Of a stretch of 41,058 nucleotides of DNA, positions 9,750-11,279 are shown one piece after another. The DNA is from a virus. Below the pieces are notes generated by a model that was given only the letters and a program-made list of their open reading frames with translations, searched no databases and was not told the origin of the DNA. The translations under genes and the position numbers were made by a program. Each line of letters starts with the position of its first letter. Within the stretch, counting starts at the first letter, position 1. The stretch covers positions 1 to 41,058 of the IMG/VR virus record IMGVR_UViG_3300045988_101518, one strand, 5' to 3'.

Positions 9750-10802
9750 ATGGAACACTTAAGATGTCCTAAATGTGGTATGGAAACTGATAAACCAGTG
9801 TGTCCATTATGCGGAGAGGAAATTATACACCATACTCATAACAAAAATGTTTTAATAAGTAAATTCTTGCCTTTGCCAACTAAAATCGTTATAGCTTTAT
9901 GGATTTTAGACAGCTTTTATATGTTGTTTTCTGAAAATCACACTTTCGGTCAATGGCTTATTGTAATGATATTCGGAATCCTTATTTATGGTGCTATTAC
10001 CAATGCAGTATACTATTTCTGGTGGAAACCCAGAAAAGCCCAAAAGTCAAAACATTCAAAGACGAACGAAAATAAAACTTTCTATTCAGAAATAAACTCT
10101 GCAAAAGAGTGTCGCCAAAAATCATTTGATGCTATGGAAGGCCATGAATTTGAATATTTTTGTGCAGATATTTTAAAAAAGAACGAATATGAAGACGTAG
10201 AAGTAACCAAAGGAAGTGGAGACCAAGGAATTGATATTATCGCTTATAAAGAGGGAATAAAATACGGCATACAGTGCAAATGCTACTCATCTGATATCGG
10301 AAATAAAGCTGTACAAGAAGCTTTTTCGGGTAAGACATTTTATGGGTGTCATGTTGCCGTCGTATTAACTAATAGGTATTTTACCAAATCTGCCAGGGAA
10401 CTTGCAGAGAAAAATGGAGTGCTTTTATGGGATAGAGATAAATTAGTTCAATTAGTTAAAAATACTACGATTGTTAATGAAACTGAATCTGACACGGAAA
10501 ATCCTACCTATGAAGGTTATGAAAATACGTTTAGGCATATATTTAAGTCGAATGTTGACAATATTTCCATTAAACGTCTTTTACCCAAAATAAAGGAATG
10601 GAAAATAGACACATTACTAATAGTGACAAGTAGCCAATGTCCAGTTTGTCAAAAATACAATAGAAAGATTTATTCATTTTATGGATGGAATAAAAAATAT
10701 CCTAAATTACCACCAATGCTTTATAACCATAAATGCCCAACTTGTGGTTGTAGTATTGGCGCAAGTATATTTTTTCCTGGAATAAATACAAATCCCAAAT
10801 AA
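9750..10802 (+). CDS. Membrane protein: N-terminal Zn ribbon, 2 TM helices, Mrr_cat restriction-endonuclease domain, C-terminal Cys4 Zn ribbon
   Basis: CPKCG...CPLCG (res 6-21). Hydrophobic helices at about res 41-59 and 67-92. Mrr-type core GHEFEYFCADILKK...GSGDQGIDIIAYKEGIKYGIQCKCY...AVVLTNRYFTKSARELAEKNGVLLWDRDKL (res about 126-236). CPVC...CPTCGC at res 297-334. Confidence 0.8.
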   Translation: MEHLRCPKCGMETDKPVCPLCGEEIIHHTHNKNVLISKFLPLPTKIVIALWILDSFYMLFSENHTFGQWLIVMIFGILIYGAITNAVYYFWWKPRKAQKSKHSKTNENKTFYSEINSAKECRQKSFDAMEGHEFEYFCADILKKNEYEDVEVTKGSGDQGIDIIAYKEGIKYGIQCKCYSSDIGNKAVQEAFSGKTFYGCHVAVVLTNRYFTKSARELAEKNGVLLWDRDKLVQLVKNTTIVNETESDTENPTYEGYENTFRHIFKSNVDNISIKRLLPKIKEWKIDTLLIVTSSQCPVCQKYNRKIYSFYGWNKKYPKLPPMLYNHKCPTCGCSIGASIFFPGINTNPK

Positions 10803-10910
10803 TAAAACAGGCCACTGTAATCAGGGGCCTCACAAAATAATATATTCACCCAGGCAACTGGGAGGGCAGCTTCCACTCGTTCCGGAGGTCTTACGGAAGG
10901 GGTGGTAATT

Positions 10911-10994
10911 ATGAGTACATATGAAGAATTTATGGTTATCATTGCAACAGCAGGATTAATCATATCCATCCTGAATATGAAAAATAAAAAGTAG
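10911..10994 (+). CDS. 27-aa hydrophobic peptide, Hol-Tox-like type I toxin candidate
   Basis: MSTYEEFMVIIATAGLIISILNMKNKK: a single TM helix with a lysine-rich C-terminus. SD GGAAGGGGTGG at 10895-10905. Below the ORF-track length cutoff. Confidence 0.6.
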   Translation: MSTYEEFMVIIATAGLIISILNMKNKK

Positions 10995-11093
10995 CCGCCC
11001 TGTCTCTGGTCAAGATTGGCGACTACTTTTGTAACTGAATTATAAATCTTCCCGGAGCGGATGGGGTGCAGCCATCTCTCCAGTTGTCTTGTT
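10979..11093 (-). ncRNA. Candidate antisense antitoxin sRNA (about 115 nt) convergent with the toxin peptide gene
   Basis: Consensus promoter just upstream (11100-11128). Terminator hairpin arms AGTAGTCGCC/GGCGGCTACT (11027-11018 and 10999-10990, one G-U pair) are followed by TTTTTATTTTT. It overlaps the last 5 codons and the 3' UTR of the peptide gene. It contains CACCCCATCCG (complement of 11058-11068), which pairs 10/11 with the toxin SD region CGGAAGGGGTG (10894-10904). Confidence 0.55.
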
Positions 11094-11099
11094 AAGTAT

Positions 11100-11128
11100 A
11101 TTATAGTCAATATCTTAATTTTTGTCAA
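11100..11128 (-). promoter_or_regulatory. Perfect-consensus SigA promoter driving the antisense sRNA
   Basis: On the minus strand: TTGACA (11128-11123), 17-nt spacer, TATAAT (11105-11100). Confidence 0.7.
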
Positions 11129-11279
11129 ACATAAAAAACCGCCCCAGTGCTACCAACACTAGGACGGCTCATATCTCCGAAGAGACGTACATATGAACAT
11201 TTATATTGTATCATCTTCGGTGACAGGTGGCAAGAGACCATCTGTCTTTTTTGCACCCATTTTTAAGGAGGATGATATC

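Follow-up and report, generated by a model that had tools for sequence, protein, structure and literature searches.

In the bsrG/SR4 system of the Bacillus subtilis prophage SPbeta, nucleotides (nt) 1-35 of the toxin mRNA pair with nt 232-262 in a long helix termed P1, and the antitoxin RNA SR4, which is complementary to the 3' arm of P1, renders nt 1-33 single-stranded upon binding, whereupon a new stem-loop extends the helix that holds bsrG's Shine-Dalgarno (SD) sequence from 4 to 8 base pairs (bp) (Jahn & Brantl 2013, PMC3834814). Antitoxins of the bsrE and bsrH type overlap the 3' end of their toxin mRNAs and promote decay through RNase III (PMC6562991). Type I toxin-antitoxin modules are established in prophages of B. 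subtilis and C. difficile (PMC6562991, PMC6563280), and PMC6563280 and PMC7699646 express the view that prophage-borne copies stabilise the element. Here we analysed a viral stretch of 41,058 nt (IMG/VR record IMGVR_UViG_3300045988_101518, positions 1 to 41,058; hereafter the window), in which a first-pass annotation had proposed a type I module of bsrG/SR4-like architecture, made of a small hydrophobic peptide gene and a convergent antisense small RNA (sRNA). Both the type of system and its architecture were borne out: comparative analysis shows a coding gene, a conserved antisense promoter and, as predicted structures, a covarying sRNA, a sequestered SD and a P1-like 5'-3' helix whose 3' arm would be the target of the antitoxin. 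The locus probably represents a type I toxin-antitoxin module that follows the bsrG/SR4 design and is located in the lysogeny region of a temperate Lachnospiraceae phage directly upstream of the integrase gene int. The analogy appears to be deeper than had been argued, because masking of the SD would be indirect, via a P1-type helix.

Homologues were collected with degenerate DNA patterns for the first eight codons of the peptide (MSTYEEFM), which matched 92 stretches in viral contigs (at least 80 loci among those listed) and at least 120 stretches in species-representative genomes. A second search, anchored on the promoter region of the sRNA, returned the same peptides together with a second subfamily (MVTY[SGD]DLF..., 28-31 amino acids (aa)) on the same RNA scaffold, giving a total set of 308 modules in 279 loci. 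The genome matches listed were mostly records titled Lachnospiraceae or bearing names that belong to this family (Blautia, Dorea, Coprococcus, Roseburia, Mediterraneibacter, Eubacterium ramulus and others), with a few others such as Bacteroides sp. and Holdemanella biformis; Clostridium bolteae, which is considered below, is also a Lachnospiraceae species. Isolates in which the pattern occurs include Blautia celeris NSJ-34, Eubacterium ramulus 21, Mediterraneibacter glycyrrhizinilyticus An427 and Fusicatenibacter faecihominis CLA-AA-H277. Promoter statistics were computed with shuffled controls on 196 distinct modules that had been found through the peptide alone and were thus not selected for a promoter, whereas the sRNA alignment comprised 101 distinct homologues and leader folding 104 distinct leaders. 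Leader structure was assessed by per-sequence folding; RNAalifold returned no structure on the leader alignment, which is poor in the variable stem. Scans of the region with Rfam, at gathering and at permissive thresholds, gave no usable match for the sRNA or the module, and DNA and tblastn searches of a phage database recovered only a flanking hairpin in Ruminococcus gnavus phages and one weak match in a Streptococcus satellite.

The mini open reading frame (ORF) that had been read upstream of int is present (Table 1) and conserved with a coding signature, and an in-frame alternative GTG start at 10902 would yield a 30-aa form. All ORFs recovered from the fetched pattern loci encode 23-28 aa with the same hydrophobic core and basic end, and the family as a whole spans 23-31 aa in more than 300 copies from viral contigs and Lachnospiraceae genomes. 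Entropy by codon position decreases from the third (23.4) over the first (15.0) to the second position (9.3), which is a coding-type substitution pattern. Judged by this pattern, the toxin ORF is a real, conserved gene for a small hydrophobic protein under purifying selection.

The first-pass annotation had called the peptide Hol-Tox-like and had suggested a search with the corresponding Pfam model (Hol_Tox, PF16935). In this search the window peptide, aligned over residues 1-27 to profile positions 1-34, obtained 19.0 bits (E = 0.0013), sibling peptides borne by the same RNA module scored above the threshold of the model (30.8, 29.5, 24.8 and 23.7 bits), and 24 of 31 relatives matched at E<=0.01; the proposed affiliation thus held outright for the siblings and stayed short of the threshold for the window peptide taken singly. 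On the same model BsrG scores 34.5 bits (its sequence was confirmed as 100% identical in the SPBc2 record), and the queries used for TxpA and BsrE score 31 and 48 bits. Aligned by hhalign, the family profile matches BsrG with 76% probability (E = 2.3e-5), spanning only 17 N-terminal residues. Furthermore, the 30-aa form with the GTG start is already present in nr as 'Putative Holin-like Toxin (Hol-Tox) [Caudoviricetes sp.]' (DAP78008.1), and Hol_Tox was the sole family reported by the Pfam scan of the peptides, which found no match to Fst/Ldr. Because its siblings in the same module family pass the threshold, we assign the window peptide to Hol_Tox as well, and by its sequence it is a divergent member of this known toxin family (TxpA/BsrG/BsrE).

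Two observations on related peptides deserve mention. One sibling, MSTYEEFQIIISVAILIVAILNYIKNDHKK, has a weak match to the NCBIfam model ComI (E = 2e-4, 21 bits versus a cut-off of 55). ComI is the competence inhibitor of the B. subtilis plasmid pBS32, and the match hints that some Hol_Tox-like peptides may act otherwise than by killing. In the Streptococcus satellite phage Javan2, an unannotated stretch (MK448355.1:1424-1501, plus strand), about 1.4 kb from one end of the 9.8-kb record, codes for a peptide that shares 54% identity with the toxin of the window (tblastn E = 0.6) and may be a related, so far unannotated toxin in a phage satellite.

On the antisense side, the perfect-consensus promoter that had been predicted on the minus strand is a persistent feature of the family: among the 196 modules not selected for it, 115 match the consensus at 12/12 positions, 56 at 11/12 and 13 at 10/12 (184/196 with at least 10/12, 94%), as compared to only 5/196 shuffled controls, and it lies on the minus strand 92-111 nt past the toxin stop codon. 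The toxin-side promoter scored no better than shuffled sequence in the same 196 modules and is regarded as weak because it has no recognisable -35 box; type I systems usually oppose a weak toxin promoter to a strong one for the antitoxin. The convergent sRNA, originally estimated at about 115 nt and now predicted at 116 nt, folds with a minimum free energy (MFE) of -36.0 kcal/mol (z = -4.0). Across the 101 aligned sRNAs, the inner stem of its stem-loop 1 (SL1) and its terminator (T1) are paired in 97.8% of cells, with 270 compensatory cells versus 73 in shuffles, none of 500 shuffles being as good, and pairing drops to 33-54% when the stem partners are slid against each other. One pair of the SL1 inner stem, for instance, occurs as AU 41, GC 30, CG 16 and UA 12 times, and T1 shows double changes at 8 of 9 pairs with 97% of cells paired.

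The two hairpins behave differently with respect to strand. SL1 lacks a minus-strand bias, its plus-strand version being slightly better in 59 sequences versus 35, whereas in 92/101 sequences it is the minus-strand version of T1 that is the more stable (p = 2e-15). In the window, T1 contains a C.A mismatch on the plus strand where the minus strand has a G.U pair, and it is followed by UUUUUAUUUUU on the minus strand and only by UUUUG on the plus strand; in the family, a U-tract of at least 5/8 follows it in 92% on the minus strand versus 42% on the plus strand, the plus-strand tail reaching at least 4/8 U in 71% of modules. The earlier description of a terminator built for the minus strand is therefore well founded. 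Its U-tract, an A-tract on the plus strand, is encoded by the terminal Lys codons of the toxin, whose stop codon forms the base of the stem. We read the sRNA as a separate antisense gene with its own promoter and terminator, predicted to be complementary to the toxin mRNA.

The 5' leader of the toxin mRNA had been described as foldable, with a GNRA hairpin and two anti-SD segments. The hairpin (CCCAG-GCAA-CTGGG, 10849-10862) does form in the MFE fold of the leader (-27.2 kcal/mol, z = -2.3), and it is found in only about 45/104 leaders. As for the anti-SD segments, TTCCG at 10880-10884 pairs with the SD in the MFE structure, while CTTCC at 10870-10874 is not used as such: UUCCG (10880-10884) and CCACUC (10873-10878) pair with CGGAA and GGGUGG (10894-10905), and the resulting stem of 12 positions, comprising 11 bp and one G.G mismatch, hides the SD. 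Among the 104 leaders, the pairing probability of the SD exceeds 0.6 in 94% versus 45% of shuffles, and the pair types in the stem are compensatory (at -9, for instance, CG 39, GC 25, AU 12 and UA 10). The duplex between the cis anti-SD strand and the SD has -15.9 kcal/mol for cognate, -11.5 for non-cognate and -9.7 for shuffled combinations, with a cognate percentile of 0.12. Thus, as predicted from these folds, sequestration of the SD is conserved across the family, with compensatory changes.

The module also shows a mirror relation between its two ends. The toxin -10 box with the first ~46 nt of the leader and the sRNA -10 box with the first ~48 nt of the sRNA are imperfect inverted copies of each other, 71% identical within a module (66% in the transcribed part), 43% between modules and 22-28% after shuffling. 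Their mismatches are strongly biased, as the types leader G/sRNA A and leader U/sRNA C occur 360 times versus 73 times for the reciprocal types, a bias present at 32/34 informative positions. Since only the favoured types yield G.U pairs when the leader is paired with the sequence complementary to the sRNA 5' domain, the bias fits a helix on the plus strand. The duplex of leader and 3' arm averages -46.0 kcal/mol for cognate, -32.1 for non-cognate and -24.6 for shuffled arms and exceeds its minus-strand equivalent in stability in 81/90 modules (p = 4e-14), an asymmetry that base composition cannot explain because it is opposite to that of T1. In a chimeric alignment, the outer 16 bp of the helix are 88% paired with 11 compensatory pairs (0/500 shuffles), and the MFE structure of the window RNA from 10848 to 11097 (-86.3 kcal/mol, z = -4.1) closes with a 37-bp terminal 5'-3' helix, the median across 95 modules being 30 pairs. 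Exactly at the end of the 3' arm, every module carries a hairpin followed by a U-rich tract. The hairpin (T2) is the plus-strand complement of SL1, and the tract, which has at least 4/8 U in 96% of modules, is in the window UUGUCUUGUU, the exact complement of the conserved 5' tail of the sRNA. From the mirror arms, the mismatch bias, the duplex energies and the 37-bp fold, we conclude that the toxin transcript most likely reads through T1 and ends at T2 and UUGUCUUGUU.

Two further pairings were considered and discarded. The sRNA 5' tail CAAGAC could pair with the loop GUCUUG of the SD hairpin, with a weak signal in one subfamily (-9.2 versus -7.9 kcal/mol) and none in the other; conservation of the tail is better explained by its complementarity to the U-tract of T2. 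A 10-bp A/U pairing of the sRNA linker with the start codon, seen in the window co-fold, had no match by eye in one relative inspected (L048) and was treated as chance.

Transcription, transcript ends, toxicity, decay by RNase III and prophage stabilisation are here modelled on the Bacillus paradigm, and the following sequence of events would result. The weak promoter would give rise to a small mRNA for the 27-aa membrane peptide of the Hol_Tox family, in which the upstream strand of the leader would hide the ribosome-binding site (RBS) in a hairpin, so that little toxin would be made. From the opposite strand, the perfect-consensus promoter would drive an antisense RNA of about 116 nt, ended at the terminator that is made of the last Lys codons and the stop codon. 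Should the toxin mRNA stop at the shared hairpin T1, the two RNAs would be perfectly complementary over at least 58 nt; more likely, complementarity would extend over the whole 116 nt, with the toxin transcript reading on to the second hairpin and its U-rich tract. In this longer form, the toxin mRNA's 3' end would fold back onto its own 5' leader, with 11050-11089 pairing to 10852-10888 in the free RNA, and the sRNA, by binding the 3' arm, would free the leader, which would then close on the RBS in the 10873-10905 hairpin, while the duplex of the two RNAs would be a substrate of RNase III. By analogy, stabilisation of the prophage is the most likely role of such a module.

Several points weigh against this interpretation. 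For every member of the family, the support is comparison in silico. The score of the window peptide stays under the gathering threshold of Hol_Tox (19.0 versus 23.3 bits), the toxin promoter has no -35 box and the start near 10848 is putative. Read-through of T1 is an inference; the U-tract of T2 is interrupted and was missed by a simple terminator scan, and the inner half of the long helix, poorly aligned in the sequence-based alignment, is only 52% paired. Moreover, the predicted accessibility of the RBS hardly differs between the short, the long and the sRNA-bound state (0.26/0.29/0.26), and in the window itself the difference runs the opposite way. A switch of RBS accessibility between these states, with so tiny a predicted effect, was therefore not retained as a candidate, and because accessibility barely changes, the translational arm of the mechanism is likewise an inference. 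Similarity to the Rfam model of BsrG (RF01412) is insignificant (12.8 bits versus a gathering threshold of 55, E = 1.7). This sub-threshold match lies at 10863-11001 on the correct strand (+), exactly over the toxin gene, and may be a trace of distant RNA homology or chance.

How the sRNA would meet the toxin mRNA could be conceived in two other ways. The first-pass annotation had proposed that the sRNA segment CACCCCAUCCG masks the SD, and the complementarity itself was confirmed, as the segment can pair at 10/11 positions with CGGAAGGGGUG of the toxin SD region in the window. If the sRNA acted mainly by this pairing in trans to the toxin RBS, it would form a second contact besides the 3' overlap, as in par RNA I/RNA II, and the segment, which duplicates the cis anti-SD strand, could be of importance if the latter were lost by 5' processing. 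In a refined test with the sRNA segment homologous to the cis strand, cognate duplexes were indeed slightly better (-12.9 kcal/mol) than non-cognate (-11.2) and shuffled ones (-10.0), although the percentile of 0.34 is far from the specificity of the cis pairing (0.12). Two preceding all-versus-all tests were near null, with cognate energies of -16.3 and -13.7 versus non-cognate energies of -15.7 and -12.8 kcal/mol (percentiles 0.43 and 0.39; shuffled -11.0 kcal/mol in the second test), and the co-fold of the window leader with the sRNA 5' domain leaves the anti-SD pairing unused, because both partners are locked in stable hairpins. The plus-strand 5'-3' helix fully explains the similarity, the anti-SD-like sequence of the sRNA being plausibly a by-product of the mirror relation between its 5' domain and the leader, whereas a model of trans pairing predicts neither the mismatch bias nor the strand asymmetry. 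Direct masking of the SD by the sRNA is thus weakly supported as a mechanism, and we regard it as unlikely to be the principal one. Rather unlikely, too, is a minimal overlap as in par, where the toxin mRNA would end at a bidirectional T1, the RNAs would share about 58 nt, and the mirror arms would have a different cause, for example shared recognition of promoters or 5' ends, or an origin by duplication. A terminator shared by both strands is generally known as the par arrangement, the short mRNA form folds well with its SD hidden, and many members have 4-6 U past T1 on the plus strand (the 71% given above). The remaining 29% are without such a U-tract, however, T1 is the weaker hairpin on the plus strand in 92/101 sequences, the mismatch spectrum and energy asymmetry of the arms point to selection on a plus-strand RNA containing both, and a hairpin with a U-rich tract sits exactly at the 3'-arm end in every module. 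These observations favour a toxin transcript that extends to T2.

Other readings concern the peptide itself. It might be a small phage membrane protein, regulated by antisense RNA, that serves superinfection exclusion, holin or lysis timing, or a ComI-like inhibition of competence. That members of the BsrE/BsrH type are toxic only on overexpression (PMC6562991), that a sibling weakly matches ComI (E = 2e-4, under the cut-off), and that the Pfam name itself says 'putative holin-like', toxicity of the peptide being a prediction, are all compatible with such a role. Yet the peptide appears homologous to the proven toxin BsrG, toxic products are typically repressed in three layers as predicted here, by a weak promoter, a hidden SD and a strong antisense RNA, and one relative with a premature stop in the ORF nonetheless keeps its sRNA gene, so that we hold a function other than that of a toxin to be quite improbable. 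Finally, a minus-strand ORF of 135 aa (10721-11128) is open in the window and, were it a real gene, would reduce the mini-ORF and the RNA features to incidental patterns. The longest stop-free minus-strand stretch in 132 related modules measures, however, 59 aa at the median and is shorter than 100 aa in all of them, no conserved homologous protein spanning the region was seen in the relatives, the 135-aa product has no Pfam match, and the coding pattern lies in the plus-frame ORF instead. Being open only in the window, this frame is best dismissed as spurious, in agreement with the first-pass annotation, and its claim to be a gene has next to no probability.

Table 1. Features of the module and its surroundings in the window (T1 and T2, terminator hairpins; TM, transmembrane)
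Feature	Position	Strand	Remarks
Putative toxin -10 box AATAAT	10836-10841	+	Position taken from the mirror alignment to promoter and first transcribed stretch of the sRNA; putative
Toxin mRNA leader, 5' arm of the long-range helix	10848-10893	+	GNRA hairpin and cis anti-SD strand 10873-10884, from MFE folds
SD strand CGGAAGGGGUGG	10894-10905	+	Pairs with 10873-10884 in the short mRNA form
Toxin ORF	10911-10994	+	27 aa, MSTYEEFMVIIATAGLIISILNMKNKK; single TM helix, basic C-terminus
T1, intrinsic terminator of the sRNA	10990-11027	-	Weaker hairpin on the plus strand, where the toxin transcript probably reads through it in part
Predicted antitoxin sRNA, ~116 nt	11093 to ~10978	-	10-nt 5' tail, SL1, A/U-rich linker, T1
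SL1 of the sRNA	11052-11083	-	Plus-strand complement corresponds to T2, a hairpin in the long toxin transcript
3' arm of the long helix, likely 3' end of the long toxin mRNA	11050-11097	+	T2, then U-rich UUGUCUUGUU at 11084-11093; 3' end putative
sRNA promoter TTGACA-17-TATAAT	11128-11100	-	12/12 match; best of five promoter-like sites in the scanned kilobase
Terminator-like hairpin	11136-11170	-	16 pairs, then T-run; abuts the -35 box of the sRNA promoter

The module lies, as had been noted, between a nuclease gene and int, the neighbours being an Mrr-type nuclease and a tyrosine integrase. This placement is conserved: in 55/69 modules from viral contigs (~80%) and at least 35/85 from genomes, the module is directly followed by a recombinase gene on the same strand, while a recombinase is found upstream in only 6-8%. 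The downstream genes encode either a tyrosine integrase (66) or a large serine recombinase (24), and the association is therefore independent of the integrase family. The spacer between module and recombinase has a median length of 187 nt. Since about half of these spacers contain a terminator on the plus strand, co-transcription of toxin and int was rejected as a general rule. To the right of the sRNA promoter, at the place equivalent to the minus-strand hairpin of the window (11136-11170), a minus-strand terminator is present in 49/125 modules and a plus-strand one in 5/125, and the hairpin probably shields the module from leftward transcription. In relatives with 87-98% identical integrases (L002-L005), this position is occupied by toxins of different subfamilies, a sign of cassette exchange, and tandem arrays of 2-4 module copies occur in 23 loci (e.g. 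L003:3230-3810, L055, L121 and L311), where a single array can mix peptide subfamilies, such as MYVTYSDLF... beside MVTYDELF....

Given that the module is co-oriented upstream of two unrelated integrase families in about 80% of viral copies, with terminators against leftward transcription, one may speculate that it is functionally tied to the integrase beyond a generic addiction cassette, as a sensor or guard of the prophage end. If so, it might, for example, act against cells whose int-proximal end has been lost or has undergone rearrangement, by killing or arresting them, or int expression might be linked through it to read-through under sRNA control; we consider this a very doubtful conjecture.

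Some copies look, from their sequences, like decaying ones. The relative L152 (module at ~1962, minus orientation) has its premature stop at toxin codon 5 (MSTY*) with an intact sRNA gene, and L058 (1895-2140) has an insertion past the toxin gene and lacks the sRNA promoter. Around the window module, the region of the 11136-11170 hairpin is 82-86% identical to DNA of two Ruminococcus gnavus phages (MT980836 and MT980838). About 35 nt to its right, a promoter-like TTGCCA-17-TACAAT with a TG (11205-11233, minus strand) would, together with this hairpin, give a minus-strand RNA of ~60 nt with a CUC-UUCG-GAG hairpin. A plus-strand terminator-like hairpin at 11222-11246 (9 bp, then T6), about 30 nt upstream of the int start and just before its RBS, may be an attenuator. 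On the other side, between the nuclease stop and the toxin -10 box, the hairpin AGGCCACTG-TAAT-CAGGGGCCT (10810-10831) has a T-run behind it in the minus-strand direction only and may be a back-up terminator for read-through of the sRNA; minus-strand terminators occupy the equivalent spot in 28/125 modules. The nuclease itself (9750-10802, plus strand) is unusual in its build: an N-terminal zinc ribbon and hydrophobic segments that probably span the membrane are combined with an Mrr_cat core of restriction-endonuclease type (E = 1e-31) and with CxxC pairs at the C-terminus. It may be a defence gene within the lysogeny module.

Type I toxin-antitoxin systems are largely invisible to annotation, and none was found described in the dominant gut Clostridia, the Lachnospiraceae; our literature searches returned no description of the present family in this group. 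The locus represents a family of over 300 modules, found in gut phages and genomes, with a complete RNA blueprint of promoter, sRNA, two terminators and 5'-3' helix. Within the bsrG/SR4 kind, which as such is already known, it is a new, widespread and unannotated member from phages of gut Lachnospiraceae. Its conserved position beside prophage integrases is striking. A covariance-type model of the sRNA as in Rfam could be derived and would improve the annotation of gut phage genomes. Furthermore, the module might serve as a tool for counter-selection or stabilisation in genetically difficult gut anaerobes, for which a preprint on the type I toxins of C. difficile provides a precedent (bioRxiv 10.1101/2020.03.04.976019).

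Among the described systems, par of the Enterococcus plasmid pAD1 (fst RNA I/RNA II) shares with the window locus the convergent transcription onto one hairpin able to terminate both strands and possibly the second, non-contiguous complementarity near the translation start, weakly supported here as stated above. However, its toxin belongs to another family, as the peptides studied here have no Fst match in Pfam, and our evidence favours a longer toxin transcript with full-length overlap. The long helix is also reminiscent of the fbi element of hok/sok, in which the 5' and 3' ends of the toxin mRNA pair and lock the transcript. The toxin and RNAs of that system are unrelated, though, and Sok binds the 5' region of hok mRNA, which is activated by 3' processing, whereas the predicted target of the antitoxin here is the 3' arm itself.

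Closer are txpA/RatA, bsrE/SR5 and bsrH/as-bsrH from the B. subtilis skin and P6 elements, all with small toxins of the Hol_Tox type, and with 29-30 aa BsrE and BsrH are close in length to the 27-aa window peptide. In these systems the overlaps measure 100-140 bp and the RNAs are longer, while no Rfam model matches the sRNA of the window. Fozo et al. (2010) listed 118 members of the TxpA family, some of them annotated as 'holin-like toxins', and a TxpA-like sequence in Clostridium bolteae was the sole one noted in Clostridia. The antitoxin side of such clostridial Hol_Tox/TxpA homologues was previously undescribed, and their association with integrases previously unreported.

The closest counterpart is bsrG/SR4 of SPbeta. 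Both are borne by prophages and encode a toxin of the same Pfam family with an N-terminal M-[ST]-[TV]-Y-E, a single TM helix and a basic C-terminus; both have a convergent antitoxin RNA overlapping the toxin gene's 3' end, an SD within a double-stranded region, and a long 5'-3' helix with an antitoxin complementary to its 3' arm, which for the window would require a transcript to ~11095. The 3' complementarity of ~100-140 nt in systems of the bsrG/SR4 type compares with 58 nt here if the toxin mRNA ends at T1, or 116 nt if it ends at T2. The window module is known from sequence alone, its hosts are Clostridia (Lachnospiraceae) instead of Bacillus, and its parts are smaller, with a toxin of 27 versus 38 aa, an sRNA of ~116 versus 180 nt and a toxin mRNA of ~190-250 versus 294 nt. 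In addition, the whole sRNA would be complementary to the toxin mRNA, in contrast to SR4 with its non-complementary SL1, the stop and Lys codons of the toxin are used for the sRNA terminator, and both promoters with their 5' regions are mirror copies of each other. The locus suggests that the bsrG/SR4 design, helix P1 included, is of ancient origin and extends beyond Bacillus.

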